Source: Acidobacteriota bacterium | GTDB lineage: Bacteria > Acidobacteriota > UBA6911 > RPQK01 > JAJDTT01 | DNA length: 64,000 nt | NCBI GenBank assembly: GCA_965263035.1 | Contig: OZ253580.1 | Coordinates: 6,048,001-6,112,000, forward strand | Direction of reading: 5' to 3' | Shown: in pieces, positions 9,456 through 33,927 of the stretch | Position numbering within the stretch: the stretch's first letter is position 1 | How the letters are laid out: every line of letters starts with the position of its first letter | Notes under the pieces: model-generated | Database searches by the model: none | Told to the model about the DNA's origin: nothing | Seen by the model: the letters and a program-made list of their open reading frames with translations, nothing else | Made by a program: the position numbers and the translations under genes

Positions 9456-11972
9456 ATGAGGGCGAACCGAGGGACCCGATTTTGGAAATACTCCCTGCAC
9501 ATCGGGCCTCTCGCCAGCTTGTCCGTAGCCCAGCCGATTTTCGACCTCCTCTCCCAGCAGCCCGAGTATCTGGTCGCGCGTCACGCCGGACTCTTGGACG
9601 CGGCGTTCTTGATCTCCCTCCTGATTCTGCTCGTTCCTGCATCAGTCGCAGCCGGAGCATATTTCCTGGGATGGGCTCTGGGCGGGATACGTTGGATCCA
9701 AGCCGCCGGCGTCGGGCTGTTTGGTTTTCTCTTGGGTCTTCTGGGCTTGAAAACCCTGATGTGGGACCTGGGAGTATCCCTCATCGCTGCGGTCGGGCTG
9801 CTCGCGTGCTTGAGTGCTCTCGTCTACGCTCGGTTCTCCACTGCGCGTCTGTTCCTGACCTTTCTTTCGCCCGCCATGGTCATCGTTCCCGCGCTCTTTC
9901 TGACAGATCCCACGGTCCAGAAAGTTCTCGATCCAAACCAGCCGCAAGGTACGGCGCTGGAGAGCGGCAAGACGGATACGCCGATCGTCATGGTCGTCTT
10001 CGACGAACTTCCCCTTCAATCTCTCCTTGATCGCCGGGGCGAAATCGACTCCGTACGCTTCCCCAATTTTTCCGGTCTCGCCAACGGCGCCACCTGGTTC
10101 CGAAAAACGACGACCGTCTCGCCTTCCACCCAATACGCGGTCGCAGCCATGACAACCGGGAATCTCCCGCAGCCGGACCGGACGGTTCTCCCCGCATTGG
10201 CCGACTATCCGGACAATCTCTTCACCTGGCTCCGAAACTCCCACCGGCTCAACGTCTCCGAATCGACGACGCACCTCTGTTTCGACTGTCCAGGGTCCGC
10301 ACGCGATCACCTGCAGAGGTGGGTCCAGCTTCTGGTGGATGTCTCGCTGCTCTATCTCAATCTCGTCCTGCCCGAGGACCTGACTTCCGGCTTGCCCGAC
10401 ATCCGTTACGGCTGGACCTGGCAGTTGGGTCATCCAGTCCGGCAATTCGAAGCATTTCTGGAATCTATCCCGGAACCCGGGAAGCCGGGGCTGCATTTCA
10501 TCCATATTCAGATTCCCCATCTGCCCTGGGTCTACCTCCCTTCGGGAAAGCGCTATCTGTTCGGCGGGGACATGGGCCTGTTCACCAAGAGGGATATCTG
10601 GACCCGGGATGAAACTCTGGTGACTCTGGCCTACCAGCGCCACCTGCTGCAGGTGGGCTTCGCCGACCGGCTCCTGGGCCGCCTGCTCCGAAAGCTGAAG
10701 ACTCACGATCTCTACGACCGGAGCCTGATCGTCGTCGCCTCGGACCACGGGGTCAGCTTTCAGCCCGGCGGGTCCAGGCGCACTATGACGGACGCCAACT
10801 TCAGGAACATCCTGAACGTGCCTCTGTTGATCAAAGCTCCCCATCAGAAAGAGGGCCGGGTGTCGGATCGCCCCACACGAACCACGGATATCCTCCCCAG
10901 TGTTGCGGGCATCCTCGGGGTTCCGGCTCCATGGCCCACCGACGGGATTCCGGTTGCGGAAACCGAGCCTCCGGAGAACCGGGATCTTGCATCCACAGTT
11001 CTGAACATCGCTCGCCCGTTCGAGTTTCTGCGTTCGCGAACGACGGTTTGTCTGGGAGGTCGGGCCTTCGATGTGACCCAACGTGGATCCCGGGTCCATT
11101 TGGATGAGGTGAGCGAGAACGGCAACAGGATTGTGTTTTTCGGCTGGTCGGCAGACATGGAAACCCTGGAACCGGCCGATTCCATTCTCGTGTTCGTCAA
11201 TGACGAATTGGTGCACCGGGGAATGGTTCGCCGCCCGCGCCCGGACGTGGTGGAATTCTTCAAGGCCGCAGAACTGGAGAATTCCGGGTTTTTGATTGAG
11301 CTCGACCGGGAACTTCTCGAAGGGAGTCCCACGGTGCGCTGCTTTGCCTCCTTCGGGGACCGAATCCGCGAGGCGCAATATCCGGCGAGTTTTCCCTGGA
11401 CCGCCAAATCGGAAGAAATTCCGGATGAAGCCAAGTCAGTTGATGCCGGTCAGATCTGCTCCCTGGATCAGAACTCGAAACGTTCTTTTCTGATCACACG
11501 GCCGCTCACCCCGGAGACCCTCAGGAAGACCTCCGAACCCAGTGAGTTCGAGATCCGTGTCCAGCAACTGGCGTGGGATGCGGGCGCGGATGGCTTGTTT
11601 CAGCCCGGCCCCTTCCGTGCCCTGATCGGGAAACGGCTGGATCAACTTACCGTACGGCCGACCCCGGGCCTCCAAATCGAGTTGGACAAGCCAAGCCTTC
11701 TTCCGAGGATGAGGCGGAGACTGGATCCCGACTTCATTCCGGCCGCCGTCGAAGGACGAGTCTCGACGAAGTACGCGGAGATTTTGGCAGTGGCCGTGAA
11801 CGGAACCGTCCGGGCGGTTGCTTCCACATTCGTCGGGCCGAGGGGCGACCGGCGTTTCCAGGCGATCGTCCCCGAATCGTCCTTGTTGGAGGAGACATAC
11901 CGAATTCAGGTGTTCGCGGTGGGACAAACGAACGGCGACGTGATCTTGTTTTCCTCAGCCGAGGGCGACTGA
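9456..11972 (+). CDS. Membrane-anchored sulfatase/alkaline-phosphatase-superfamily protein
   Basis: N-terminal TM bundle, VMVVFDELP, HIQIPHLPW, IVVASDHG, VPLLIKAP, DILPSVA. Confidence 0.75.
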   Translation: MRANRGTRFWKYSLHIGPLASLSVAQPIFDLLSQQPEYLVARHAGLLDAAFLISLLILLVPASVAAGAYFLGWALGGIRWIQAAGVGLFGFLLGLLGLKTLMWDLGVSLIAAVGLLACLSALVYARFSTARLFLTFLSPAMVIVPALFLTDPTVQKVLDPNQPQGTALESGKTDTPIVMVVFDELPLQSLLDRRGEIDSVRFPNFSGLANGATWFRKTTTVSPSTQYAVAAMTTGNLPQPDRTVLPALADYPDNLFTWLRNSHRLNVSESTTHLCFDCPGSARDHLQRWVQLLVDVSLLYLNLVLPEDLTSGLPDIRYGWTWQLGHPVRQFEAFLESIPEPGKPGLHFIHIQIPHLPWVYLPSGKRYLFGGDMGLFTKRDIWTRDETLVTLAYQRHLLQVGFADRLLGRLLRKLKTHDLYDRSLIVVASDHGVSFQPGGSRRTMTDANFRNILNVPLLIKAPHQKEGRVSDRPTRTTDILPSVAGILGVPAPWPTDGIPVAETEPPENRDLASTVLNIARPFEFLRSRTTVCLGGRAFDVTQRGSRVHLDEVSENGNRIVFFGWSADMETLEPADSILVFVNDELVHRGMVRRPRPDVVEFFKAAELENSGFLIELDRELLEGSPTVRCFASFGDRIREAQYPASFPWTAKSEEIPDEAKSVDAGQICSLDQNSKRSFLITRPLTPETLRKTSEPSEFEIRVQQLAWDAGADGLFQPGPFRALIGKRLDQLTVRPTPGLQIELDKPSLLPRMRRRLDPDFIPAAVEGRVSTKYAEILAVAVNGTVRAVASTFVGPRGDRRFQAIVPESSLLEETYRIQVFAVGQTNGDVILFSSAEGD

Positions 11973-11982
11973 TTTCCACCGG

Positions 11983-12612
11983 ATCGGGTCGGGCGCAGGG
12001 GATTGCGCCCCTGCACCCTCCCACACCACCGGACGTACCGTTTTCAGTATCCGGCGGTTGGAGTCACCCGAGGCTCTTTCGAGCCTCGTACAGGGCCTTT
12101 CTTTCCGGTTTCCGCCGCCGCTGAGACTTGATCTCCGCCCTTCCGGCTTGCCGGGCTCCACCCGTGGGCCTTCCATGCCGGGTCCGAGGAGGGTTCCCGT
12201 CGCCCCGCTGTCGGAGGTGTTGCGATCCCGCTGACGAGTCCACCATAGGGCCAGTCCGACTCCTTCGGTCCTTCGCTCCACCGGCATTACCCGGCTTCTT
12301 CGCTACTACGACCTCTGCTGACTTCTCAAGGGCTCTCACCCTTGAGATCTCCCCGAGTAAGGTGCTGCATCTTTCCCCCCGGGCCGCCCGGCTCTACCTG
12401 ATGCGTCTGGATGGGGTTCGGGTTTCGCTGTTGCTCGCCAGCTCACCACCCGCACCCGGCCTCACTGCCGGTTCGTGTTCCTGCGGTCGTGGGTTTGCCT
12501 TCCGCTTCCTTCAGCTTCACCTCGCGGCTACGCCTTGCGGTTCGGCTAGGGTTGGTCCCATCACCTCCCTTGGGATCTTTCATCCCTTAGATACAGCCCA
12601 TGTCGGGCGCAC
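11983..12612 (-). ncRNA. ORF-less group IIC intron (630 nt)
   Basis: Minus strand begins GTGCGCCCGACATGGG. It has a DII/DIII-type GAGATCTC..GAGAAGTCAGCAGAGGTCGTAGTAG stretch, DV AACCGCCGGATACTGAAAACGGTACGTCCGGTGGTGTG (CGC triad), and DVI ending CCCGACCCGAT. No RT ORF in DIV. Inserted 4 nt after a stem-loop. Confidence 0.9.
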
Positions 12613-12741
12613 GAGCGGCGACTTTCTTGTCGCCGATTAGGGGGGGTAAGGGGGGACGGAGTCACCCCTCCTCTTCCTCCGTCCGGAACAGACGACAAGA
12701 AAGTCGCCTGTCCCAGTGGGCGACAAGAAAGTCGCCCCTCC
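12613..12741. repeat. REP/REPIN-like hairpin cluster B (intron target)
   Basis: GAGCGGCGACTTTCTTGTCGCCGA and GGGCGACAAGAAAGTCGCCCCTCC units, similar to cluster A. Confidence 0.8.
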
Positions 12742-12799: not shown

Positions 12800-13218
12800 T
12801 GTGAGACCGCTTCTGCATCGCAGTCTCATGAAGTGGCGGAACCCTCCCGAGTCATGGCCGGAATGAACGATGCCCTCTACGATCAGACGGACAACCACTT
12901 CGTGACCGTGACCTACGCCTACTTCGACCTCGAAGCACGAGAGTTGCGAGACCGCCTCGATCCCACTGACTTCAGGCGATCGAATCGTAATCTACAGCGA
13001 CGGCGTCACCGAGGCTGAAGCGCCGAACGGGGAGCAATTCTCGACGGAACGCCTGCTTGATATTCTCGTCGAGCACTCCAACACCACCGCGGCTGAATTC
13101 GCCGACTACACCCTACGGCAACTGATCGGATGGACCCAAGCTCGCACTGGATGACGACCTGACCCTCCTCGTCATCGACGTGCCGGAGAACGGGGAACAA
13201 GCAACTCCAACAGGCTGA
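12800..13218 (+). pseudogene. SpoIIE/PP2C (RsbU-like) phosphatase remnant
   Basis: Fragments MNDALYDQTDNHFVTVTYAYFD and, in another frame, GDRIVIYSDGVTEA..FSTERL..DDDLTLLVID. Internal deletion or frameshift; no N-terminus. Confidence 0.7.
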
Positions 13219-13344
13219 AAGTGCTTCGAATATAGGAAAGACGTCGTGTCAAGAAGTGGCACGGTGCACTGTACGCAATTTTGAGAAAACCCAGGAACAA
13301 CCTGACTCTGGATTCAGCAGTTCAGGATCGGGGTTCGAGACATT

Positions 13345-13914
13345 ATGTCACATGAACGGAGGAATGCTATGCATTCTTCAGAGAGAAAAAGAGCCTTCAA
13401 GAAGACTTGGTTGTGCGTCCAAAAGAGATACGTCATGGGATCCATAGTATCGGAGCGTGGTCTCCAAGCGGCGCTTTCCGAGGAGCTTAGAGGGAAACTT
13501 CCAACTAGTGTATGCGTCGTTGTGGAACCGCCATGGACGATGGCTGACGGAACTAGAAAGACACCAGATCTTATCATAATTGAGGGAGAGCAAATCACCG
13601 ACATTATTGAGCTTAAATTTGTCCCACATCACCGAGCACCGTGGAAGAAAGATATTGAAAAACTTCGCTCTTACATTAGAACACCGAATACACAGTATCC
13701 AATACTCCTGGATCCAAAGACTGGGCAATGGGACAAATATTTTTCAGTCCACGATGCCTGTCGCCTGCATTTTGTTGCGGTTTCTCGGAACGACTCTGAT
13801 GCTGTGTTGCCTCCTCTCCCTCTCGAAAATCAAGTTTCGAGCATCAACCATTGGTATGAGCGTACTGGCGATGGCGATGACAAGTGGGACATTGATTTCG
13901 CATACGATCAATAG
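13345..13914 (+). CDS. Low-GC hypothetical protein, PD-(D/E)XK nuclease-like
   Basis: SERGLQAAL..VE..TPDLII..IIELKF..KDIEKL pattern; AT-rich relative to flanks. Confidence 0.55.
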   Translation: MSHERRNAMHSSERKRAFKKTWLCVQKRYVMGSIVSERGLQAALSEELRGKLPTSVCVVVEPPWTMADGTRKTPDLIIIEGEQITDIIELKFVPHHRAPWKKDIEKLRSYIRTPNTQYPILLDPKTGQWDKYFSVHDACRLHFVAVSRNDSDAVLPPLPLENQVSSINHWYERTGDGDDKWDIDFAYDQ

Positions 13915-14268
13915 AAATTTATTAAATTCGTCTACACCTTAACTCTACTTGAATTAGGGAATTCAATAGATACTATCGGGATAGCGTCGTTTAAGATTTG
14001 CTGCTCAGTTACGGAGCAGACCCGCATTGATTCTACAGGGAATGTATCCATGTAACTTCGGAGTTACAGATACAATACAATAGTAATGTAGTCGTGAGAA
14101 TATGAAGGAGATCCAGCCCAGCTATCATGGGTCCGGGTAGTGAGAGCAGGCATCAATAGCTGGAGTTATTATTCGCATTCCTCGTTAATACAACTATAAT
14201 CCAGTCTTCCAAATGATGCGTAGGAGTACTGCATTTCCACACGTACTGCCGGATTCTTCCAAGCCTGC

Positions 14269-15672
14269 CTACCAAACCCCCAACACCTTCCACCAGAGGC
14301 CACCGGCGACGAAGTAGATGAGGATGTTCACCACGCTCAGGAGGCCGCCCAGCTTCCACCAGTCGCCCATCTCCACGTATCCCGTCCCGAAGAAGACCGG
14401 CGCCGGCCCGGTACCGTAGTGGGTCATGCCGCTGAACAGGTTGCTGAAGAACCCCAGCACCAGCGCCGCCAGCAGGGGCGGGGTTCCCACCGCCAGGGCC
14501 ACGGCCAGGAAGGGAGCGTACATGGAGCTGATGTGGGTCGTGTTACCGGCGAACAGGTAGTGGCTGTAGAAATACACCAGACTCAACAGGAGGAACGACG
14601 GCATCCAGTGGCCGTCCCCCAGGATGGCGGCCAACTGGTCTCCGAACCAGGGGATCAGCCCCATCTGGTTCAGGTGGCTGGCCAGGTTGATGAGGACGGC
14701 GAACCAGACCAGGGCGTCCCAGGCTCCCTTCTCTCCCAGGATGTCCCGCCACCGCAGCGTTCCGGTCAGAAGCAGAATCGCGAGACCCGTAAGCGCCGCC
14801 ACCGTGCTGGTGATTCCGAAACGGCCGCCGAAGATCCACAGAAACAGAAGGAGGGCGAAGGTGCCGAGCATGGTCCACTCGGACGACTTCAAAGGCCCCA
14901 TCTCCTCCAGCTTCTGCCGAGCCATCCGGGCGGCTCCGGCCGTCTCCTTGATCTCCGGCGGATAGATCCGGTAGAGGATCCAGGGGCCCACCGCCAGACT
15001 CAGCAGTCCGGGAACCAGGGCGGCCAGGAACCAGGTGGTCCAATCGATTTCGATTCCCATCCCTGCGGCCAGCCCGGCCGCCATGGGATTGCCGGCCATG
15101 GAGGTGAGGAACATGCCGCTCACCACGACGCTACCCTGATAGGACGCCTTGATCAGAAACGCTCCCAGCCGGCGGGCGCTGGCACCGTCCGGACGGCTCC
15201 CGAAGGAGACGGCCACGGACCGCAGGATGGGGCAGATGACGCCGCCGCAACGGGCTGTATTGCTGGGAATGGCCGGGGCCAGGACCAGATCGACTCCGAT
15301 CATGCTGTAGGCCAGCCCCAGACTCTTCTTTCCTACCGCCGCCATGAACAGATATGCGATCCGCAAACCCAGACCGGTGACCAGGAATCCCCGGGAGATG
15401 AAGAAGGCGGACACGATGAGCCAGACCACGGGGTAACCGAACCCGGCCAATGCCTCGTCCGGCTTCAGGACTCCCGTGAGCATGGTGGCGATCAGCCCGA
15501 CCATGGCCATGGCGCCCAACGGAAGTGTCTTGGCCAGGATCCCTGCGATAGTGGCCAGGAAGATGGCCAGGAGGCGCCACGCCTGGAGCTGCACCTCGTC
15601 CGGAGGCGGCACGAACCAGACCAAGAGGCCGATAAGGATCGGGGGGAGGAATCGCAGCGGCAGACCGCTCAT
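14269..15672 (-). CDS. DASS family (divalent anion:sodium symporter) dicarboxylate transporter
   Basis: PAIPSNTARCGG, MFLTSMAGNP, HYLFAGNTTH, THYGTGPAPVFFG. ATG 15672 overlaps the upstream stop. Confidence 0.9.
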   Translation of the reverse strand: MSGLPLRFLPPILIGLLVWFVPPPDEVQLQAWRLLAIFLATIAGILAKTLPLGAMAMVGLIATMLTGVLKPDEALAGFGYPVVWLIVSAFFISRGFLVTGLGLRIAYLFMAAVGKKSLGLAYSMIGVDLVLAPAIPSNTARCGGVICPILRSVAVSFGSRPDGASARRLGAFLIKASYQGSVVVSGMFLTSMAGNPMAAGLAAGMGIEIDWTTWFLAALVPGLLSLAVGPWILYRIYPPEIKETAGAARMARQKLEEMGPLKSSEWTMLGTFALLLFLWIFGGRFGITSTVAALTGLAILLLTGTLRWRDILGEKGAWDALVWFAVLINLASHLNQMGLIPWFGDQLAAILGDGHWMPSFLLLSLVYFYSHYLFAGNTTHISSMYAPFLAVALAVGTPPLLAALVLGFFSNLFSGMTHYGTGPAPVFFGTGYVEMGDWWKLGGLLSVVNILIYFVAGGLWWKVLGVW

Positions 15673-18506
15673 TGCTCGGACGATGAGTAGGTCACCCAGA
15701 CGGGAGAGCCCCAAGCCACCATGCCGTCCTGCTGCAGGACCCGCACGTAGTAGTAATGCTCGCCGGCCCCGGCGTCGGCGTCCACGTACTCGAACGAGAT
15801 CTCGTCCTCCTCCTCGGGAGACACCTGGTAGACGATGGCCTCATCCCGGATGACGTCCACGCGATGGAGAGGATCGGTCCCCACCACTCTCGTCTTCAGG
15901 CGGAGCGGTCCGGACACGGTGAACTCCTCGCCCATGAGATGCTCGCCCCCGTCGTGGACGAAACGCACGTCCAGGATGATGTTGTCGGTGGACGCATAGG
16001 CGCGGCGGCTCCGGATCGCCTCCATCAGGCTCTCCAGGGTCAGGTCCTCGGCCAGCAGGCAAGCGTAGCTCATGTGGGTGGAATGGTGGTCCGAGGAGGC
16101 GATGAATCCCAACCGGTACCCCTTGGCCAGAGCGTTCCAAACATAGCCGGGACGTTCCTCGGAGTCCCGGGGCTTCAAGGTTCCGGGCTGGGGCGCCCCG
16201 GCGTGCTCGTAGGTGTCCCGCAGACCCTGGTAGATCTCCACCAGGGTCTCCACCTCGGGATCGTTGTCACGCCAGTCGTTGGACCTGCCGGTGGTGTGGG
16301 GGATGGAGGTGCCCCCATGGCGCCGAAGGTACCAGAAAAGCCTCTCGGCGCCCTCCTGTCCCCGCTCCTCAGGCCCCAGGATGGGATGGATGGGCTTCCC
16401 CCGTTCGGTGAAGAAGATGTTCCGGTGGCCGCTGGGGAAACTGAGCGATCGCTCGTAGCCGTAGAAGGCCACGAAATTCTTCAGTTGGAAGAGGTCGGCG
16501 GTTTTCTGGCTCCGCCACCAGGTGTAGGGCTCGTCAACATGGTGAGTGTGATCGCTCACTCCCAGGAAATCCAACCCACCCGCATCCACGGCATACCGGT
16601 AGGCATCCAGGAGGGTGCCGTCCGCCGCACCGTCCACCGAGATTTCCGTATGGCGGTGCAGATCTCCCCGGTAGATGGAGTAGGTCTTCCCCCGATGCTC
16701 CACCCGGAAAGCGCGGATTCGGTCCAACTCTTCCTCTTCGTCGGGATGGATGGGCGGGACCGGAGGATCCTCTGCCGGCGGAGGGGCGGGAACCAGGGAT
16801 ACGCCTTGTTCCAACTCCGGCGGCTGCAGCCTGGCCAGGAAGACCTGATTGTGTTGCTGCATGTAGCTCTTGGCGTTTCGGTGATCCGTGGCCCACGTGA
16901 GCCAGAACGCGCCGTCCGGAGTCCTGGCGCCGGAGGGCATCAGGGCGTTGCGGCCGCTGGTGCGGGCCAGACGTATCGGCGCACTCCATCGGTCGCCCCG
17001 GTATTGGGTGAGGTGAATGTCCCAGCGCGGATAGTAGGCGGGTCCCAGCCTGCCCCTCACTTCCCGGATGTCGGGCTGGCGCAGGTACAGTTTTCGGACC
17101 AGCAGCCAGGGTTCGCCGGAGGGCCCCATCTCCAAGTGGGGCATCTCCCAAAGGTCTCCGATGAAGATCGTCGAGAGAGACCCCTCCGTGTCCAACCGCT
17201 GCTCTCCGTCCAGACAGACGATCCGGATTTCCCTGGACTCGCGAAGCTGTGTCCCTTGCACCCGGGACAGCCGGCCCGAGTCCTTGCCCCACTCGACGCC
17301 CGACTCCTGCCAAGCCACCCAGATGCGGCCTCCCGGGTCTACAGTGACCGAAGGGTTGGCCTCGAACCGGGCGGTTCCCGCCACCGTCCGGACCGGCATC
17401 CACTGGCCCGACGACCAGACCCGCAGATAGACGTCGTAGCTCCCGGAGGCGTAACCGTCCCAGACCACCGCCAGCGTGCCCTCGGGTCCGGCCGCGGCGA
17501 CCGGCCACCAATTGTTGCCCGCGGCGGAATCCCCCGTGCTGATCTGCCGGGGCGGCGACCAGCGGTCCTTCTCCAAGCTCCGGGCCATGATCTGCGCCCG
17601 GTCTCCCGGGACGGCCCGCCAGATCAGCCAAAGACGTCCCGAGGCATCCCGGACCAGGCTGTGGTGGATGTCGGGACCCGAGCCCTCGGTGAGCCGCTCC
17701 ATCCCGGACCAGCGGCCTCGCTCATGGGATCGGCCATAGAGATCCCAGTTGCCGTCCACCTGCATGGACCAGACCACCCAGATCCGCCCGGAGTCGTCCT
17801 CCGCCACCGCCGTCTGCAACACATCCGACTCCGCCGCCAGCACCTGGGTGGGCCCCCAGGAATCCCCTGAAATGTTCCGGACGCAGACCGAATCGGAGTC
17901 GTTCTCGTACTCCTGCCAAGCCACCCAGAGATCGCCCGAGCCGGTTGCCCAGACCGCCGGGTAGTCCTGCTGTCCCGCCGGACGGGAGTCGGCAGCCAGG
18001 GGCGACGGCAGGGACTCGACGCGGACGCCTCCGTCCAGAAAGTCGGCCGCCGCGAATGGAGGGAGCTCCCGGGGAAGGAAGGAAAAGGCTCCTCGGACGG
18101 TTTCGATCTCAACCGGTCCATGGGAGGAATTCTCCCAGACCTGGATCAGAATGCTGGGATACTCCAACTGGTAGCTCTTCGGATTCCGCATCCACGCCTT
18201 CCGCGTGCTCACGACCCAACTGGAGCCGGTCCGGACGTAGTCGTTGGGGAAGACCGGGTCCTCGCCGGTCTGGATGTTGTGCTCCCGGATCAGATCGGGA
18301 ACCGCCTGGATCCGTTGCCCCGGGGAGAGGACCAGACGGCCGTCCCAGGCGGTCGGGGTAGCGTCCTTCAGTCCGAAGGTGAGCCGGTAGGTGGCTTCCG
18401 GGGCCGGAGACGGGCTCGCCGGCCGGTGGGAAACCGGGGTTGAGTCCAGGGCACAGCCTGCAGCCAGCCCCAACAGCAGAAAGAGAGCCCACGTGCGGGT
18501 CAGCAT
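15669..18506 (-). CDS. Lipoprotein with beta-propeller repeats and C-terminal PHP-like (DUF3604-like) metallohydrolase domain
   Basis: LAAGC lipobox, repeated W..W blades, YRGDLHRHT, GVSDH, GYE, GHRN, IPH, VEIYQ, GFIASSDHH. Confidence 0.7.
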   Translation of the reverse strand: MLTRTWALFLLLGLAAGCALDSTPVSHRPASPSPAPEATYRLTFGLKDATPTAWDGRLVLSPGQRIQAVPDLIREHNIQTGEDPVFPNDYVRTGSSWVVSTRKAWMRNPKSYQLEYPSILIQVWENSSHGPVEIETVRGAFSFLPRELPPFAAADFLDGGVRVESLPSPLAADSRPAGQQDYPAVWATGSGDLWVAWQEYENDSDSVCVRNISGDSWGPTQVLAAESDVLQTAVAEDDSGRIWVVWSMQVDGNWDLYGRSHERGRWSGMERLTEGSGPDIHHSLVRDASGRLWLIWRAVPGDRAQIMARSLEKDRWSPPRQISTGDSAAGNNWWPVAAAGPEGTLAVVWDGYASGSYDVYLRVWSSGQWMPVRTVAGTARFEANPSVTVDPGGRIWVAWQESGVEWGKDSGRLSRVQGTQLRESREIRIVCLDGEQRLDTEGSLSTIFIGDLWEMPHLEMGPSGEPWLLVRKLYLRQPDIREVRGRLGPAYYPRWDIHLTQYRGDRWSAPIRLARTSGRNALMPSGARTPDGAFWLTWATDHRNAKSYMQQHNQVFLARLQPPELEQGVSLVPAPPPAEDPPVPPIHPDEEEELDRIRAFRVEHRGKTYSIYRGDLHRHTEISVDGAADGTLLDAYRYAVDAGGLDFLGVSDHTHHVDEPYTWWRSQKTADLFQLKNFVAFYGYERSLSFPSGHRNIFFTERGKPIHPILGPEERGQEGAERLFWYLRRHGGTSIPHTTGRSNDWRDNDPEVETLVEIYQGLRDTYEHAGAPQPGTLKPRDSEERPGYVWNALAKGYRLGFIASSDHHSTHMSYACLLAEDLTLESLMEAIRSRRAYASTDNIILDVRFVHDGGEHLMGEEFTVSGPLRLKTRVVGTDPLHRVDVIRDEAIVYQVSPEEEDEISFEYVDADAGAGEHYYYVRVLQQDGMVAWGSPVWVTYSSSEQ

Positions 18507-27482: not shown

Positions 27483-28976
27483 TTACATGCACTGGACGAA
27501 GAGTTGATCGGCGGTCGTGTTTTCGGGCCGGATCTCCTGCTGAATCCGACCGTGCTTCATGACCAGGATACGGTGGCACACCTCCACCAGTTCCTCAAGC
27601 TCGCTGGAGACGAAGAGGATGGCAATCCCCTGGCGGCTCAGGTCCCACATCAGTTGGAAGATCTGCTGCTTGGCCTGGAGATCGATGCCGCGCGTGGGCT
27701 CGTCCAGGAGCAGCACTTGCAAGGCAGTGCCAAGCCACTTGCCCACCACTACCTTCTGCTGGTTGCCGCCGCTCAGCGAAGAGACGGCCTCTTCCACGTC
27801 GGGAGCCTTGATGTGCAAACGATCCACCTGCTCCCGGATCAGCCTCCGCTCCCGCCGCCGACTCAGGAATCCCCGCCTCGAAATCCGGTCCAGACTGGCC
27901 AGACAGAGATTGGACCGGATGCTCTGGGTCTGAATCAGGCCCTCCTGCTTCCGGTCCTCGGGGGCAAATCCGAGACCCAGATCCTTCATCTCAGGTGGAG
28001 AGACTTTACGGCAAGTCCTCTCGGAGAAAAGGATTTCACCGCGATCGAAGGGCAGGGCTCCGAAGACGGCCTTCAGCAACTCGGTGCGTCCCGAGCCCAG
28101 CATGCCGGCGATTCCCAGGATCTCTCCCCGGTGAAGGGTCAGGTCCACGTCCTGGAACTCCTCGCCCCGGGACAATCCCCGGACCTGCAGGACCGGCTCC
28201 CGGCCGGCCAACAGGTCGGCGGGACGCTCCTTCTGCACGGTCTCACCGAACATGTAGTGGACGATCTCTTCGGCCGACGTCTCGGCCATTTCCACAGTCG
28301 CCACGTGATCGCCGTCCCGGAGGACCGTAACCCGGTCGGCGATTTCCCCCAACTCCTGGAGCCGATGGGAGATGTAGAGGATGGCCACGCCCTGCTCCGC
28401 CAGTTGGCGGACCAGCCGGAAGAGGCTCTGGGTCTCGTGGCGGGCCAGTCCCGACGTCGGCTCGTCCAGCATCAAAACCGAGGGCCGGAAGGACATGGCC
28501 TTGGCGATCTCCACCGTCTGCTGCTGAGCGAAGCCCAGCCGGCCCACCGGCTCGTCCACGTCCATCTCCACGTCCATGGTGGCCAGCACGGCACGGGCCC
28601 GCTCGGCGGCCGACGTCCAGTCGATGAAGGGGCCGCGGCTCCGGGGCATGCGTCCCAGGAGGATGTTCTCGGCCACGCTCAACCCCGGCACCAGGCTCAA
28701 CTCCTGGTAGACGGTGGCGATCCCCCGCTGGAAAGCGTCGCCGGGCGATCTGAGCGCCACCGGTTCGCCGTCGAGCAGGACCTGGCCGGCGGTGGGTTGA
28801 GTGGAGCCGGCCAGAATCCGGACCAGCGTGCTCTTCCCGGCGCCGTTCCGGCCGATGAGGGCGTGCACCTTGCCCCCTTCGAACCGCACCCGGACGTCTT
28901 TGAGGGCGACGATTCCCGGATATTCCTTCCGGATTCCGCGGGCTTCGAGCTGGATCGGCTTGGGGACGGGCCTCAC
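27483..28976 (-). CDS. Sugar ABC transporter ATP-binding protein (RbsA-like)
   Basis: GRNGAGKST, LDEPT, LSGGNQQKV, DEPTRGID. Confidence 0.93.
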   Translation of the reverse strand: MRPVPKPIQLEARGIRKEYPGIVALKDVRVRFEGGKVHALIGRNGAGKSTLVRILAGSTQPTAGQVLLDGEPVALRSPGDAFQRGIATVYQELSLVPGLSVAENILLGRMPRSRGPFIDWTSAAERARAVLATMDVEMDVDEPVGRLGFAQQQTVEIAKAMSFRPSVLMLDEPTSGLARHETQSLFRLVRQLAEQGVAILYISHRLQELGEIADRVTVLRDGDHVATVEMAETSAEEIVHYMFGETVQKERPADLLAGREPVLQVRGLSRGEEFQDVDLTLHRGEILGIAGMLGSGRTELLKAVFGALPFDRGEILFSERTCRKVSPPEMKDLGLGFAPEDRKQEGLIQTQSIRSNLCLASLDRISRRGFLSRRRERRLIREQVDRLHIKAPDVEEAVSSLSGGNQQKVVVGKWLGTALQVLLLDEPTRGIDLQAKQQIFQLMWDLSRQGIAILFVSSELEELVEVCHRILVMKHGRIQQEIRPENTTADQLFVQCM

Positions 28977-28978
28977 AA

Positions 28979-29980
28979 TTAAGAACCGGGGCTGGCGATG
29001 AGTTCCTGCAGCCGGGCCCGGTAGGCGCGGACGTTCTCGAGGTCCCGGCGCTCGAGCAGGACTCCCGACATGGAGACGTGGCTCTCGACTTCCCTGCCCT
29101 GAATGACGTTGACGGCGGCTTTGACTGCCTGGTAGCCGATTTCAAAGGGTTTCTGGCCGGTGACGGCTTGCAGGATCCGGTCCTCCGACAGGAGAAAACC
29201 GAGCATCTGGTCGCTCACGTCGGTCCCGAAGACGGCGATGTCGCCTCCGCGTCCGGCGTTCTTGACGGCCATGACGGCCCCCACCGTCCCGCCCTCGTTG
29301 GCGCACCAGATCAGGTCGATCCCGGGATTGGCGGTGAGGATGTCGCCGGCCTTTCGGATGCCCATCTCGGGCAACCAGGCATCCTGCTCCGCCACGATCT
29401 CGACGCCGGGCAAATCGGCGATCTGACTCTTGAAACCGTTGGTCCGGGCTTCGCTCTGCTCCGTCAGCGCCGACTTGAAGGCCAGAATGGCGATCTGAGC
29501 CTTTCCATCCAGCTTCTCCTCGATGTAGGCGCGGGCCACCGTACCCGTCTGGGCGCCCAGGTTGGACTGGTCGCTCTCGATGAATGTGGCCGGAAGCCCG
29601 CCCACCACGGTGGAGTTGTACGCGATGACATGGATCCCGGCATCTCGCGCCTGCCGCAGAGCCGTGACCGATGCGGTGGCGCTCAGAGGCGAGAGGACGA
29701 TGGCGTCCACCTGCCGGGCGATGTAAGTGTTGACGAGCTGCAGTTCCTTCTCCGGCTTGCCGTCGACGGTGGACAGCAGCAGCTCGGCCCCTTCCTCCCT
29801 GGCCGCCTCCTGCATCCCGAATCGGACCAGACGGAAGAACTGGTCCTCCTGCATGAACATCCCGGCTATCTTCATGCGGCCGTCCTCGTCCGCCGCCGGC
29901 CCGCAGGCCGCCGACGAGAGCACCAGAAACAGGGAAATTCTGATCAGGAAGCGAAGTTGTGGTCGATGTCTCATGGCCAC
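28979..29980 (-). CDS. Sugar ABC transporter substrate-binding lipoprotein
   Basis: SAAC lipobox; RbsB-type motifs RTNGF, ANE and GTD. Confidence 0.88.
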   Translation of the reverse strand: MAMRHRPQLRFLIRISLFLVLSSAACGPAADEDGRMKIAGMFMQEDQFFRLVRFGMQEAAREEGAELLLSTVDGKPEKELQLVNTYIARQVDAIVLSPLSATASVTALRQARDAGIHVIAYNSTVVGGLPATFIESDQSNLGAQTGTVARAYIEEKLDGKAQIAILAFKSALTEQSEARTNGFKSQIADLPGVEIVAEQDAWLPEMGIRKAGDILTANPGIDLIWCANEGGTVGAVMAVKNAGRGGDIAVFGTDVSDQMLGFLLSEDRILQAVTGQKPFEIGYQAVKAAVNVIQGREVESHVSMSGVLLERRDLENVRAYRARLQELIASPGS

Positions 29981-30042
29981 GTCATTCTAGCAGCCCGCAG
30001 CTATAGTCCCGCACCGAGGAGAGAACGTCGACCGGCCCGCCC

Positions 30043-30840
30043 TCACAACTCTTTCAGCAACTTGCGGATCTGGGACGGAGTGTCCCTGCTCGGCACCGAT
30101 TCGGCGTCTTCGAGATAGCGTTCCAGCAGCTTCCGCGCTCTCGGATACAGGGGGGAGCGTTTCGCTCCGATCCACGCTTTGGCCGCAACCACCCAAAGTT
30201 TGCGGTTGTCGGGATCCCGTGCGAACGCGGTCTCGAAGAGCTCGTCGCTCTCCGCATGCTGGCGGCGCCGGGAGAGGTACGCGGCGTGTTCCGCCAAGTA
30301 ATCGGTGTTGTCCGGGTCAAGTTTGCGGGCCAGCACATACTGAGCGGCCGCATTCGTGAAGTCCTTGTCGTGCTCGAAACAGACGGCCCAGGCGATGGCG
30401 CCTCGTCCCTCGTCGATCTGCTTGATGCGATCGGCTATCTTCGGGGTTTCCGCCTTGTTTCCTCCCACGATGCCGGGAGCCTCAAAGTGGAAGTTCTGCA
30501 GGGCCTCCAAGGCGTCAAGATTCGAACCGTCCAGTTCCACGGCGCGTTCGAAATGCACCTTCACCTTCTTCGCCAGACCCATGGCCCGGAAGCGGCCAAA
30601 TCCCGTCATGCCTTCGGCCCGCCGCCCCATCGCGAGGCCCAGCCAATAATGGTAGGTCGAGCTGCCGGGATCCTTGCTCACAGCTCGTTCCAGCGATTTC
30701 TGCGCACGCTTGTAGTCCTCGATCCCATAAAGGCGGCGCCCTTCCTCCCAGTCCTCCCGTCCCGGCTCGCCGACCGCAAGGGCCGCGATGCAGAACAGCG
30801 CAAGTGCCAAACTCCCTCTAGCCATTATCGTCGCTCCCAT
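30043..30840 (-). CDS. Secreted tetratricopeptide-repeat protein
   Basis: Signal peptide; YHYWLGLAMG, FERAVELD and APGIVGG TPR patterns. Confidence 0.75.
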   Translation of the reverse strand: MGATIMARGSLALALFCIAALAVGEPGREDWEEGRRLYGIEDYKRAQKSLERAVSKDPGSSTYHYWLGLAMGRRAEGMTGFGRFRAMGLAKKVKVHFERAVELDGSNLDALEALQNFHFEAPGIVGGNKAETPKIADRIKQIDEGRGAIAWAVCFEHDKDFTNAAAQYVLARKLDPDNTDYLAEHAAYLSRRRQHAESDELFETAFARDPDNRKLWVVAAKAWIGAKRSPLYPRARKLLERYLEDAESVPSRDTPSQIRKLLKEL

Positions 30841-31130
30841 TCACATGAACTTGGATTCTTCGTTTCCCTGCTGCGCGGGGACTCATTCTCCATGACGCAA
30901 GTATCCGTCGGCAACCTTGCAGCTGTCATGATCATGGGTTCTGCCGTTTCTTCCTGCTCCCGACAGGAAAAACACACTGGAATCGGGCTGCCGGGAACAT
31001 GCCGGTGATAGTGGATGTCAGGCCGCCGGGTTCCAAAGGCGGGTTTGCAGAGGGCGTGAAGACCCAAGTTGGCAAGGTGCCGATCTGGGTGGCTACGAAT
31101 TGATGCCTTGGATGAGCTGGCCGGCGGCTT

Positions 31131-31220
31131 GGAAGGGGGACATTCTTGTCCCCCTGAATCCCAAGATTCGGCGACTGCAAATCGCCGCTCCGGTTCGGCG
31201 GCTGGAATGTCGCCGCTCCC
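31131..31220. repeat. REP-like hairpin cluster
   Basis: GGGGACATTCTTGTCCCC, CGGCGACTGCAAATCGCCGCTCC, CGGCGGCTGGAATGTCGCCGCTCCC. Confidence 0.7.
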
Positions 31221-31309
31221 GCCGAATCCCGATCCTCGTTTCTCCCAAGAGTTCGCCGCGCGCGGGCCCTTTGGGATGCACTATGGGCCTATCCGAGAGA
31301 TTGGTCGAA

Positions 31310-31891
31310 TCAGTCGGCGATCGTGATGATGGTGGTTTGGCGATCCAATCGCTTGCCCAACCAATGGCCAAGAATACCGCCCCCGACGGGTGCGACCACC
31401 AAGGCGACGATCCTGCCTACAGCCGCAGCACCACTCCATTCTCCCCATCCGCGAATGCCGAAGGCAGCCGGAAGCAAGGATCCGCCGCCGATTCCCAGCA
31501 TGAGTCCCTGCTTCCGTGCGATACCCACCAGTTTCTCCACACGGATTTCCTTCACTGATCCTCTGGCGATGGAAGCCTCGGAACCCCAGGGGTACTGCTT
31601 CGGGTCCGTGGCCATGATGATGCGATGGAGGTGGATGCTGTCGTCCAGCAACGTGACCGAATCGCTCCGGACAGCTCCTCCCTCGGTCAGGACGATGGTG
31701 ACCGTCGAGTCCCTGTCGAGGAGATAGGGGAGTCCCTCCCAGTGCATTTCACGCCGAGTCTCCGACCGGGCCTCCAGCGTCTGGGGAACCAAGAAAAGAG
31801 CGATCAAGCCTTGAACCAACAACATGGGCAACATCCCCGCTGCCGTGGTTTTCGTGAGCCAACCTTCATTCTTTTTGGTGTGATTTCTCAT
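31310..31891 (-). CDS. Hypothetical secreted/membrane protein with C-terminal glycine-rich helices
   Basis: AGGAGGAGG RBS, signal-like N-terminus, two C-terminal hydrophobic segments. Confidence 0.65.
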   Translation of the reverse strand: MRNHTKKNEGWLTKTTAAGMLPMLLVQGLIALFLVPQTLEARSETRREMHWEGLPYLLDRDSTVTIVLTEGGAVRSDSVTLLDDSIHLHRIIMATDPKQYPWGSEASIARGSVKEIRVEKLVGIARKQGLMLGIGGGSLLPAAFGIRGWGEWSGAAAVGRIVALVVAPVGGGILGHWLGKRLDRQTTIITIAD

Positions 31892-32062
31892 GGCGTCCTC
31901 CTCCTCATGGTTCGAAACCTCCGGACATTAGTAGATGTGAATTTTTCTCCGGAGGAGGCTCACCGAGTGAATTCGGACGGAGTGAGTCCGGAGGGTTTCG
32001 AAGGAAGGGGCCACGCCGATTGGCGCCGGTCCGAAACGTCCATCACAGGCGGCGATTCCGTG

Positions 32063-33619
32063 TCAGGATCGAGATCCTGGCCGCCAGACGGTAAGTCCCC
32101 GCAGATCCCTGTCATGCCGGCTTCCGATCAGGAGGCTGACGAAATACGCCACTCCAAAGAGAAGGAGATTGGCGAACGCGCTCACCCAGAAGTTGTCGGG
32201 GACGTGTGCGGACAGGCCGGGCAGGAGCTGCTTGCCGAGGGGAGTGCCCACGAACAGCCACCCTCCGACTGAGAGGACCGTGACCGCGGTGGCGGTCAGG
32301 GCCGCCCGGCTGTCCACGCGCAAGGTGACCATCCCCACGACGAACAAGCTGAAGAGACCCCCTCCCAGGATCGAGAGGAACATTCTGGAAAGATCGTCCA
32401 GGGTCTCGGAGACCCGGTAGAAGTGGATCGTACAGGCGGTGGTGATCATCACCACGCTGAAGAGCAAACTGACCAATCTTCCGACTTTCGCATAGTGATG
32501 CGGTCCCCGATCCTTGACCCACAATCTTCGGTAGAAGTCGGTGGTGACGGTGGCCGCCGTGGCGTTGATGCTCGAATCTAGCGTCGACATGGCGGACGCG
32601 AGCAGTCCGGTCAACACCAGCCCGGCCAAGCCGGCGGGGAGCTGAGTCAGGATGAATCTGGGAAATACGGCATCCGCTGGGAGCCCCTCCAGCCCGGTGT
32701 TGGGAACCACCTTCACGAAGACGTATAGGGCCGTACCCAGAAACACGAAGTAGGTCCAGGTCGGCACCGCCAGGCAGCAGCCGATGATGGCGCCCCGGTA
32801 GGCATCCTTGTCGCTCTTGGCGGCCGCGTAACGCTGGACGTTCGTCTGATCCGTGCCCGAGATCTGCAGCAGGATCATGAATTCGGCGACGATGTAGGCC
32901 CAGACGGTCTTCCCGTGGAGGGTGAGGTCGGTGCTGCCCAAATCGAACTTGTTGTCGGCTTCGGCCACCTGCAACAACTCGGCAAAACCTCCCGGCAGTT
33001 GAGACACGATGATGGGCAGACACAGGAGTCCTCCCCCGATGAGGGCGATTCCTTGAAAGACGTCCGTCCAGATCACCGCCTGGAGCCCTCCCAGGATGGT
33101 GTAGGCGGAGACCAGGATCCCCGCGACGATGATGATCACGGGCAGCGAGTCCTCGTCCGTCCCCAGGATGGACCGGATCGCCAGGGAGACGGCGTAGAGC
33201 ACCAGTCCGGTCCGGAAAAAGTGGAAGAGCACGAAGGCGGCGGCCGCATAGATCCGGGCCCAGAGTCCGAATCTGAGTTCCAGGTACTCGTAGGCCGAGC
33301 GCACACGCGTCGCCCGGTAGAAGGGAATGAACAGATAGACGGCCACGAACACCGCCGGAATGTAGGTGAAGAGGGACAGGACATTGCGCCAATTGGCGTC
33401 GCCGAAGGCGAAAGCGGGAAGTCCCAGGAAGGTCAGAGAGCTGACGATGGTGGCCATCAGGGAGAAGCCCACGACCCAGCCCGGCATGGACCGGCCCGCC
33501 AGGAAGTAGCCTTCATCCGTCTGGCTGCGGCGGGAGCAGTGAATTCCGATGGCGACCAGCAACAGGAAACCGAGGCCGATGATGATCTGGTCGAGCAATC
33601 GGATGTTGAGTCCCGTCAT
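32063..33619 (-). CDS. Sodium:solute symporter (SSS family)
   Basis: YFLAGRSMP, SAYEYLELRFG, GGLQAVIWTD, DQTNVQRY, SAMSTLDSSIN. Confidence 0.92.
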   Translation of the reverse strand: MTGLNIRLLDQIIIGLGFLLLVAIGIHCSRRSQTDEGYFLAGRSMPGWVVGFSLMATIVSSLTFLGLPAFAFGDANWRNVLSLFTYIPAVFVAVYLFIPFYRATRVRSAYEYLELRFGLWARIYAAAAFVLFHFFRTGLVLYAVSLAIRSILGTDEDSLPVIIIVAGILVSAYTILGGLQAVIWTDVFQGIALIGGGLLCLPIIVSQLPGGFAELLQVAEADNKFDLGSTDLTLHGKTVWAYIVAEFMILLQISGTDQTNVQRYAAAKSDKDAYRGAIIGCCLAVPTWTYFVFLGTALYVFVKVVPNTGLEGLPADAVFPRFILTQLPAGLAGLVLTGLLASAMSTLDSSINATAATVTTDFYRRLWVKDRGPHHYAKVGRLVSLLFSVVMITTACTIHFYRVSETLDDLSRMFLSILGGGLFSLFVVGMVTLRVDSRAALTATAVTVLSVGGWLFVGTPLGKQLLPGLSAHVPDNFWVSAFANLLLFGVAYFVSLLIGSRHDRDLRGLTVWRPGSRS

Positions 33620-33790
33620 GGTTTGGCTAGGAGTCTGCGCGGTAGAAATGATCGTAGCGAGAAAGTGGGGAATCGAGGCCAGATTTTCTCGATTTGGAGG
33701 TGCATAGTTGTTCTATTCGCCGAGAAATCGAGGAAATATGGACCGATTCTACCGCTTTCGCAGTAGATCAATTTCTGCGGCGCAGGCTCC

Positions 33791-33890
33791 TAGGAGGGGC
33801 GACTTTCTTGTCGCCCACTCCGGTCTTGTTCGCTCACGCCTCGGGGTTTCGTTACTCGGGAGTTCGGCGGCAAGAAATCCGCCGCCCCCA
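33791..33890. repeat. REP-like hairpin pair
   Basis: GGGCGACTTTCTTGTCGCCC and CGGCGGCAAGAAATCCGCCG. Confidence 0.7.
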
Positions 33891-33927
33891 TGCCTCCCCT
33901 ATTTCCGACTTGTAGGCGCAACCGTGG

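Follow-up and report, generated by a model that had tools for sequence, protein, structure and literature searches.

The stretch of DNA analyzed here (the window, 64,000 nt) spans G000:C1:6048001-6112000, where G000 is the source genome, a 6.2-Mb Acidobacteriota assembly. On its minus strand, running from 12612 to 11983, lies a 630-nt group II intron that begins with GTGCG (12612-12608), ends with GAT (11985-11983), and carries no open reading frame (ORF) for a reverse transcriptase (RT). The intron is antisense to a sulfatase gene, whose stop codon is 10 nt from the intron's 3' end, and the nearest upstream gene on the intron's strand, for a Na/sulfate symporter, is 1.66 kb away and is a possible source of read-through transcription (Table 1). 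No gene spanning the intron was found among the gene calls, which come from a rough caller based on GC content at third codon positions (GC3); gene positions are therefore approximate, and this applies to all intergenic and gene-context counts given below. The 5' exon ends in GGCGAC (12634-12629)-AAGAAA-GTCGCC (12622-12617)-GCTC (12616-12613), a hairpin of a repetitive extragenic palindromic (REP) family followed by the 4 nt proposed as intron-binding site 1 (IBS1), the partner of exon-binding site 1 (EBS1) within the intron.

Table 1. Features of the intron locus, in window positions
Feature	Position	Strand	Basis
ORF-less group IIC intron (predicted), 630 nt, 5' GUGCG ... GAU 3'	11983..12612	-	Rfam RF02001 + RF01998 + RF00029; 96-99% identity to 18 other full-length copies
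Domain I (3' part), domain II + III core	12268..12531	-	Two Rfam D1-D4 models, RF02001 + RF01998
Domain I hairpin GCUG-GCGAGCAA-CAGC (DNA GCTG-GCGAGCAA-CAGC), proposed EBS1 = GAGC at 12433-12436	12427..12442	-	Sequence and covariation
Domain IV without ORF, 204 nt; terminal hairpin CGAGGCUC-GAAA-GAGCCUCG at 12069-12088	12060..12263	-	Alignment fold; comparison with RT-bearing copy
Domain V, 34 nt, CGC triad 12054-12056, 2-nt AC bulge	12025..12058	-	RF00029 alignment
Domain VI, bulged A at 11989 (candidate branch point)	11985..12023	-	RNA folds
REP hairpin GGCGAC-AAGAAA-GTCGCC, target stem-loop at 5' exon end	12617..12634	-	Sequence; repeat family in genome
Proposed IBS1, GCTC, last 4 nt of 5' exon, abutting stem	12613..12616	-	GCTC in 24/24 copies; covariation with EBS1 in relatives
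First 3' exon base C, presumed IBS3	11982..11982	-	C in 23/24 copies and 5/7 distant relatives
REP cluster upstream of target: inverted copies GGCGAC-TTTCTT-GTCGCC (12719-12736) and GGCGAC-TTTCTT-GTCGTC (12691-12708), hairpin GGGGTGAC-TCC-GTCCCC (12652-12668)	12652..12736	-	Sequence
Sulfatase gene, convergent, not interrupted	9456..11972	+	Pfam PF00884, 60 bits
Na/sulfate symporter gene, closest upstream gene on the intron's strand	14269..15714	-	Pfam PF00939, 498 bits

A search of Rfam with Infernal (gathering scores, 32 for RF02001, 35 for RF01998, and 40 for RF00029) returned three minus-strand matches, each covering its model end to end: RF02001 (group-II-D1D4-3) at 12364-12531 with 86.4 bits (E 7e-17), RF01998 (group-II-D1D4-1) at 12268-12361 with 45.3 bits (E 6.5e-6), and RF00029, the model of domains V and VI (DV-DVI), at 11983-12059 with 40.4 bits (E 1.9e-5). 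The defining motifs of group II introns are a GUGYG 5' end, an AY 3' end, and a bulged A in DVI at 7 to 8 nt from the 3' end, and a CGC triad in DV is typical of class IIC. At this locus the bulged A lies 7 nt before the intron's 3' end, and the DV triad is CGC (12056-12054), aligned to AGC of the RF00029 consensus. Of the 22 aligned ORF-less copies of the genome, 21 have the same DV and one has a C>T change within the bulge, and the substitutions in DVI between copies (G-C/G-U, U-G/U-A, and A-U/G-U) preserve the helix. Folded as a single sequence, the intron has a z-score of -3.25, and none of 20 shuffles folds equally well. Ribozyme models, end motifs, and the bulged A of DVI thus assign the 630-nt element to the group II introns, with splicing itself predicted.

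Domain IV (DIV) is closed by a basal stem, GGAGUCG/UGACUCC in the alignment fold, and its terminal GAAA-loop hairpin occupies the position that a 1.2-kb RT ORF holds in full-length copies of the intron. Neither of the two ORFs that overlap DIV (110 and 91 aa) has a match in Pfam. Excluding DIV, the ribozyme measures about 426 nt. By the class C tests that could be run, namely RT similarity, a target stem-loop with a short IBS1, and a small ribozyme of CGC type, the element is placed in class IIC, a class characterized further by the lack of an EBS2-IBS2 pairing and by IBS3-EBS3 recognition of the 3' exon. An earlier interpretation made from the letters of the window alone (the sequence-only reading) had described a complete 630-nt IIC ribozyme with a GUGCG start, a CGC-triad DV, and a DVI ending in AT, a description that proved exact base for base. 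Its further statements that DIV is short and without an RT ORF, that the 5' exon is a REP hairpin plus the 4 nt GCTC (12634-12613), and that no gene is interrupted likewise agree with what was found.

A whole-genome DNA search located 24 copies of the intron in G000, comprising 19 intact ORF-less copies, 3 ORF-less copies broken by insertion sequence (IS) elements, and 2 RT-bearing copies. The 19 full-length ORF-less copies are 630 nt long, except for one of 632 nt, and share 96-100% identity. The 2 RT-bearing copies (G000 529488-531335 and 2572796-2574643) are 1848 nt long; in them intron positions 1-528 and 540-630 lie 1.2 kb apart, and the insert between is an intact ORF, encoding a 409-aa protein from its likely start (MEQVV...). 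The two differ from each other at 6 of 1848 positions, and each retains a 515-codon open frame with YADD. RVT_1 and GIIM are the only domains of the 409-aa protein. It reaches 363 bits with TIGR04416 (group II intron reverse transcriptase/maturase; cut-off, 300), and among solved structures is closest to the GsI-IIC RT (449 bits, 394 residues aligned), followed by LtrA (124 bits) and chain 6me0 (110 bits). By this ranking of similarity, the RT of the long copies is assigned to class C, with no DNA endonuclease domain predicted. Thirteen other matches to the first 12 bases of the intron were set aside as chance, there being no intron sequence behind them.

Two of the broken ORF-less copies (G000:C1:3923178-3925592 and 3067627-3070027) are split by one and the same IS3-like element, with an identical 388-aa integrase-type ORF and a 111-aa ORF upstream of it, at different points: intron position 350 in one copy and 264-276 in the other. 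In the third (G000:C1:5180457-5185638), intron positions 121-264 are replaced by a 4.7-kb block with ORFs of the IS21-like IstA/IstB type and a 710-aa serine-recombinase-like ORF. A 5' intron fragment of about 51-55 nt (L132, G000:C1:56917-56967) follows a hairpin with a CCTC tail and ends at IstB-like coding sequence; it resembles the CCTC/GAGG lineage of sister species described below and could be the remains of a second targeting lineage within G000. The genome also holds a second, unrelated group II family of RF02003 D1D4-4 type (91.8 bits) with four RT-encoding copies, at G000:C1:5841500-5843480 (L131 303-2273) and near 983763, 5056630, and 5538413. About 160 nt separate the end of DV-DVI in the L131 copy from the start of a 23S rRNA gene downstream, and this intron may sit in the spacer of an rRNA operon.

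All 24 copies have the same 5' junction, hairpin-GCTC/GUGCG (GUACG in one copy), with no spacer between hairpin and GCTC. In 22 cases the target stem is perfect, with 5 bp or more; the other two are imperfect REP copies. The AAGAAA-loop REP precedes 19 of the 24 copies, both RT copies included. Four more stand at other REP-type hairpins, GGCGGCTGGAAACCGCC (one copy), GGGGGTTGMAAACCCCC (two copies, with the hairpin sequence GGGGGTTG(C/A)AAACCCCC), and GGGGACAAGGATGTCCCC (one copy), which brings REP-type hairpins to 23 of 24. The remaining copy (G000 436206) follows the non-REP hairpin GGCCATC-AGGTC-GATGGCC plus GCTC and lies antisense within a 365-codon open frame with a GC3 of 0.81. At three further copies (1151210, 2272572, and 3923178) a gene seemed to be interrupted; the frames spanning these junctions are stop-to-stop extensions of neighboring genes, and the candidates were rejected. 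Nine of the 24 copies end 1-11 nt from the stop codon of a convergent gene. The target rule is thus a GC-rich hairpin followed directly by GCTC; the AAGAAA REP is strongly favored, though not exclusively. On the 3' side the intron is followed by a C in 23 of 24 copies. Farther on, the 3' flanks are dissimilar from copy to copy, which indicates independent insertions. Among seven distant relatives the first 3' exon base is C in five and C or T in all, too little variation for covariation with EBS3, and a covariation search over the 24 copies and seven relatives did not locate EBS3.

The hairpin family GGCGAC-AAGAAA-GTCGCC is a genuine REP family, being palindromic, present in many copies, mostly extragenic, and clustered. 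Its strict core occurs 170 times in G000 against 0.002 expected from base composition; 141 of the 170 are intergenic (intergenic DNA makes up 23% of the genome), and 67 neighboring pairs lie at most 100 nt apart. A composite REP flank of about 60 nt, as at the window locus, accompanies 9 intron copies and recurs at 10 sites without an intron, and the AAGAAA family is present in sister species as well. Among hairpins followed by GCTC, the intron occupies 17 of 91 of the AAGAAA REP, 1 of 60 of the TGGAAA type, 0 of 20 of the GGCGA-TGGAA type, 2 of 22 of the GGGGGTT type, and 1 of 4 of the GGGGAC type, compared with 1 of 721 of all other (non-REP) perfect hairpins. Selection against insertions in genes must account for part of this contrast. 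The REP subtypes also differ among themselves (Fisher p 0.0014), which suggests that stem-loop geometry matters too. Two CCTC-tailed hairpins that at first counted as occupied were an effect of a loose criterion (the next five bases only), all 24 true 5' ends being at GCTC.

Two matches to Y1_Tnp were found in G000 (39 and 36 bits). The better one, an IS200-like transposase at G000:C1:3477692-3478473 (L129, about 1058-1840), is flanked on both sides by a hairpin pair, GGGGACATCCTTGTCCCC and GGGGGTTNAAAACCCCC, as would be expected if it were a REP-associated transposase; the frame is broken into two ORFs, of 94 and 127 aa. The second match has AAGAAA-type REPs on one side only. Head-to-tail REP arrays with a 28-nt period reach up to eight in a row in the related genome G014 (G014:C1:1491539-1491756), and arrays of this period occur in G000 at 101479/101507, 2019895/2019923, and 2252955/2252983.

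The sequence-only reading had pointed to GAGC at 12433-12436, exposed by a domain I (DI) hairpin, as the partner of the GCTC tail. The motif sits in the 8-nt loop of that hairpin (intron positions 171-186), and compensatory changes in relatives support its role as EBS1. The IBS1/EBS1 pair is GCTC/GAGC in G000, in G009, and in a Verrucomicrobiaceae metagenome-assembled genome (MAG; L050) and CCTC/GAGG in G012, G014 (two copies, one ORF-less and one with RT), and G008, so that the loop base opposite the first IBS1 base goes from C to G exactly where IBS1 goes from G to C. It is GCCA/UGGC in the Bryobacterales MAGs L051, L054, and L055 and GCUA/UAGC in the Bryobacterales MAG L052. Four pairing states with changes on both sides are thus represented, and the 4-nt IBS1 always follows its hairpin without a gap; L053, whose 5' boundary is uncertain, does not fit. 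A relative from Alicyclobacillus (L058) has a flank of terminator type, a hairpin followed by TTTCTTT. The idea that EBS1 follows the commonest REP tail of each species found no support: G014 has 62 GCTC-tailed and 29 CCTC-tailed AAGAAA REPs, and G012 has 14 with GCTC and none with CCTC, yet both carry GAGG.

The same reading had called for a search for further copies and for an RT-encoding parent with the same ribozyme and for a table of insertion sites. The 24 copies, the two 1848-nt copies with an intact 409-aa RT/maturase ORF, and the uniform insertion directly behind a hairpin plus GCTC answer to each of these. Its interpretation as a whole is supported. The proposal that the intron is specialized for this one REP family needs softening: it holds for the 19 copies at AAGAAA REPs and, taken as REP-type hairpins in general, for 23, while four copies lie at other REP types and one at a non-REP hairpin. 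That last copy, of the kind named in advance as evidence against the proposal, refines it rather than refutes it. Decayed domain pairings, which had been named as the sign of a dead relic, were not seen, and pairings are kept among the aligned copies.

Insertions are strongly biased with respect to replication. The dnaA gene at 2.87 Mb coincides with the minimum of the cumulative GC skew, the maximum being at 5.86 Mb. Relative to these points, the sense strand of 20 of the 24 copies is co-oriented with fork movement, which places them in the lagging-strand template (binomial p 0.0015). Among empty hairpin-plus-GCTC sites orientation is unbiased (429 of 896 co-oriented; Fisher p 0.0019 versus occupied sites), and called genes are almost unbiased (52.5% co-oriented). 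Within the AAGAAA-REP sites with GCTC alone, 14 of 17 occupied versus 21 of 74 empty sites are co-oriented (Fisher p 6e-5), or, counted the other way, 14 of 35 co-oriented sites are occupied (40%) versus 3 of 56 others (5%). According to published accounts, introns lacking an endonuclease prime from replication forks (PMC4424553) and class C introns are strand biased (PMC8919778). The bias seen in G000 fits priming of endonuclease-less introns at forks and, as genomic evidence that insertion goes into the lagging-strand template, is unusually clean.

Orthologous loci show the state before insertion. The sulfatase gene has an orthologue in all eight other genomes of the genus, and at none of the seven orthologous loci whose downstream sequence was read does an intron follow the sulfatase stop. 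Directly behind the stop in G011, G013, and G010, uninterrupted by an intron, comes the same REP composite (GAGCGGCGRCTTTCTTGYCGCC...GGGGGGACGGAGTC...), and the G011 junction, ...CCGG/GAGCGGCGAC, equals the window junction with the intron taken out. The REP therefore predates the intron. On the other side of the insertion, the 1.4 kb between the REP cluster and the symporter gene (window 12900-14268) contains no ORF accepted by the gene caller, and a candidate ORF at 13345-13914 on the plus strand has no match in Pfam.

A search at the level of the family of organisms found some match in 12 of 15 genomes (G000 counted), mostly to a 41-nt conserved stretch common to other introns. In an order-wide search of 76 genomes, with 7 candidates scored per genome, 14 genomes (G000 counted) matched at E 1e-20 or better, and contiguous ORF-less matches were confined to G000, G012, G014, and G008. 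G014 has five RT copies and one ORF-less copy, and G009 has one RT copy. The large expansion of ORF-less copies is peculiar to G000. Outside the order, the closest RTs are 72% identical (an Acidobacteriota MAG), and others are at about 65%.

Comparison of DIV among these genomes suggests that the RT ORF was lost more than once. In the long copies DIV reads ...GTACGAG/TCGCTGATGGAACAG...(ORF)...CCATCGGA/CCTCGGGTGAC. In the ORF-less copies of G000 the whole 1.2-kb ORF gives way to GCTCGAAAGAG, completing an 8-bp stem capped by GAAA; aligned to the RT copy, the replacement is an 11-nt loop segment. The ORF-less copy of G014 keeps the first 12 ORF bases (ATGGAACAGGTG) together with the last ones, that of G008 retains the last ORF bases only, and that of G012 has the GAGGCTC...AGAGCCT frame in common with G000 but is 18 nt longer. 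The 5' half of DIV (intron positions 382-514) is also of two types, one in the ORF-less copies of G000 and G012 and the other in all RT copies and the ORF-less copies of G014 and G008. Because deletion end points and types of the DIV 5' half differ between the ORF-less copies of these species, the simplest reading is that there were at least three independent losses of the RT ORF within one genus and that the G000 family stems from an older loss.

Ten copies in G000 are within at most 4 base differences of each other, and five are identical, which points to a recent burst. The GUGCG end, EBS1, IBS1, J2/3 region, DV, and DVI of the window copy show the family consensus or pair-preserving changes only. 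Across the 22 aligned ORF-less copies the consensus fold has 190 predicted pairs, 7 of them with two-sided compensatory change, along with many one-sided changes among G-C, G-U, and A-U. Within G000 the predicted stems contain 26 minor pair variants, 17 that keep the pair and 9 that break it.

Transcripts were looked for in the assembled contigs of four public runs, three of RNA and one of a kind not on record. Contig depth was about 1050-1230 over the intron and about 7 on its flanks in two metatranscriptomes; in the fourth run, about 554 over the intron versus about 23 on the flanks corresponds to copy number. Contig depth is no measure of RNA level, and RNA libraries can hold DNA, so we draw no inference from these values. 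A 54-nt segment of the DII-J2/3-DIII core (window 12256-12309) stood out by itself, with contig depths of about 28,000-34,000 in the metatranscriptomes X15 and X16, 421 in X17, and 1,541 in X1; many other organisms in the samples presumably contribute group II introns that account for the excess.

Taken together, the window element is very probably one copy of a non-autonomous group IIC family that was derived by ORF deletion, is supplied with RT in trans, and lands at REP hairpins. An ORF-less copy would be transcribed, probably by read-through from outside, and the RT/maturase from either full-length sister copy would bind its RNA in trans and aid lariat splicing. The ribonucleoprotein could then reverse-splice into single-stranded DNA where a GC-rich hairpin is extruded with GCTC immediately next to it, EBS1 (GAGC) pairing with GCTC and the following base C acting as IBS3. 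The preferred site would be in the lagging-strand template at a replication fork, where, as the RT has no endonuclease domain, a nascent lagging-strand fragment could prime cDNA synthesis. The abundant REP family of the genus would offer dozens of intergenic sites, so that insertions would be mostly harmless and the small ORF-less form could multiply.

We infer mobilization in trans by the RT of the long copies because there are 22 precise ORF-less insertions, 10 of them nearly identical. We also infer transcription and splicing of the family and priming by Okazaki fragments; the window copy, an older one, may still be active. In published work, IIC introns read the stem-loop at the 5' splice site and need the intron-encoded protein (IEP) for branching (PMC7161350), and bacterial ORF-less introns nearly always accompany a related IEP-encoding intron (PMC4424553). 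A broader picture, in which we have somewhat more belief than doubt, is that of a still-active IIC lineage resembling short interspersed nuclear elements (SINEs), with at least three ORF losses in the genus, an 11 to 1 excess of the ORF-less form over its parent in G000, REP-plus-GCTC landing pads on the lagging-strand template, and a single-base switch of EBS1 from GAGC to GAGG that shifted the REP tail used (GCTC or CCTC) in sister species.

Several observations weigh against this interpretation. The ORF-less lineage is not freshly derived from the resident RT copies: identity between the two is 97.6% over positions 1-381, about 82-92% over 382-514, and 100% over 540-630, so the IEP would need to accept a diverged DIV. 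Site abundance alone does not set EBS1, as the REP tails of G014 and G012 show. The balance of 17 to 9 among pair variants falls short of proof that selection acts on the stems in this genome; young copies would be expected to give just such a mild signal. Gene context throughout depends on rough gene calls. The other points concern the window copy itself and make it possible, though on balance we think it unlikely, that the family is or was mobile and this copy is a dead relic, kept as harmless between a gene end and a REP. It is a member of an older subfamily, 9-27 differences away from each of the 18 other intact copies, and is the second most isolated of the intact copies, the young burst having occurred in another subfamily. 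It is far from the nearest gene on its strand, with none within 1.6 kb upstream, and the exon-exon joint (12613-11982) is absent from the contigs of the four runs, which neither shows nor excludes splicing. Against a relic stand its functional motifs, which are at consensus or differ by pair-preserving changes, and its single private change in a DI stem, which yields a G-U pair.

G012 raises a different question. In this genome (99% complete) a single ORF-less copy stands alone: no cognate RT is present, and the best RT is 36% identical. An ORF-less copy can accordingly persist without its partner. The ORF-less copies might then be independent of the cognate RT altogether, by hydrolytic self-splicing, which IIC ribozymes perform in vitro (PMC7161350), or through the RT of the second family, whose four genes have intact open frames. 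We consider this improbable. Hydrolysis yields a linear intron and leaves the 22 precise insertions unexplained, the reported need of IIC branching for the IEP (PMC7161350) points the same way, the second family shares only the 41-nt stretch while the cognate RT copies are 97.6-100% identical to the ORF-less ones in DI and DV-DVI, and the only genome with a large ORF-less expansion also carries the cognate RT. Spread at the DNA level, with copies carried along with REP clusters by recombination or by a REP-associated tyrosine transposase, would account for the composite 5' flank shared by nine copies and could draw on the REP-flanked Y1 transposase of the genome. It is nonetheless very improbable, as the same flank also occurs 10 times without an intron, the 3' flanks all differ, the junctions are base exact in all 24 copies, EBS1 covaries with the flank, and the replication-strand bias of occupied sites is absent or reversed in empty REPs. 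We give scarcely any credence to a takeover by the host, with the intron RNA serving as a structured 3' element of, or an antisense RNA on, the neighboring genes: the nine copies that end next to a convergent stop codon invite the idea, but position follows the location of the REP, which at empty orthologous sites lies a few bases past the same stop, the neighboring genes are unrelated to each other, and copy number differs greatly between sister species, as expected of a selfish element.

Mobilization in trans into REP hairpins thus remains our preferred reading, and if the SINE-like picture is true, the family is a natural system in which a retroelement parasitizes both its parent's enzyme and the structure of another repeat. 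With 22 ORF-less versus 2 autonomous copies and a young burst, it suggests that a relationship like that of SINEs to long interspersed nuclear elements exists also in the smallest intron class. For IIC introns it offers a clean natural setting in which to study target recognition, strand choice, and SINE-like parasitism. With so simple a target code (a hairpin and 4 nt) and with compensatory variants of it in nature, both the EBS1-IBS1 rule and the contribution of the DNA stem-loop are directly testable, and the natural ORF deletion with its GAAA-capped DIV offers a ready-made compact IIC ribozyme. Intron finders based on the RT would miss 22 of the 24 copies in G000.

The known IIC introns, such as B.h.I1, GsI-IIC, and Ta.it.I1, insert after intrinsic terminator stem-loops (PMC7161350, PMC7306698, and PMC4424553). 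The G000 intron is like them in its small ribozyme and CGC-type DV, in an RT that lacks an endonuclease domain and is nearest to the GsI-IIC RT, in a 5' exon made of a stem-loop and a 4-nt IBS1, and in its intergenic location. It is unlike them in that the stem-loop is a REP-type repeat with no T run behind it, IBS1 is GC rich (GCUC) rather than U rich (compare TTTCTTT in the Alicyclobacillus relative), and most copies have no ORF. The IIC-attC introns described in PMC4424553 and PMC3001079 are a IIC lineage that likewise moved from terminators to other repeated imperfect palindromes; the target in G000 is a REP family scattered over the chromosome instead of integron attC sites, and no integron context was seen.

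The one well-studied proliferation of ORF-less introns, that of TeI3/TeI4 in Thermosynechococcus elongatus, concerns a IIB family in a cyanobacterium (PMC2882425). There too, copies with deletions in DIV outnumber ORF copies, 17 and 11 compared with 22 and 2 in G000, and the ORF-less introns were shown to be mobilized by IEPs in trans (PMC2882425). According to the same account, TeI3/TeI4 are of class IIB/CL, with an endonuclease-containing IEP, long EBS1/EBS2 recognition, and several retargeted families, in contrast to the single 4-nt IBS1 plus hairpin of the IIC intron in G000; one ORF deletion begat all copies there, whereas the end points differ here between G000/G012, G014, and G008.

REPs are established landing sites of mobile elements, among them ISPpu9, ISPpu10, and ISPa11, and a group II intron is already listed in a table of such elements (PMC1525189). 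In that table, two of nine copies of the intron of Pseudomonas putida KT2440 are REP associated, a weak association compared with 23 of 24 at REP-type hairpins in G000, with an exact junction rule and a matching EBS1. This table entry was all that the full-text literature yielded on a REP-targeted or proliferated ORF-less IIC intron, a statement that covers neither subscription papers nor a claim of absence from print. The G000 family departs from the textbook in using a REP instead of a terminator or attC site, in its GC-rich IBS1, and in the preponderance of ORF-less copies, and it calls for no new principle. Hairpin targeting by IIC introns and ORF-less proliferation, as in Thermosynechococcus, are of a known kind; the REP landing pad and the 11:1 excess of ORF-less copies are what vary here.

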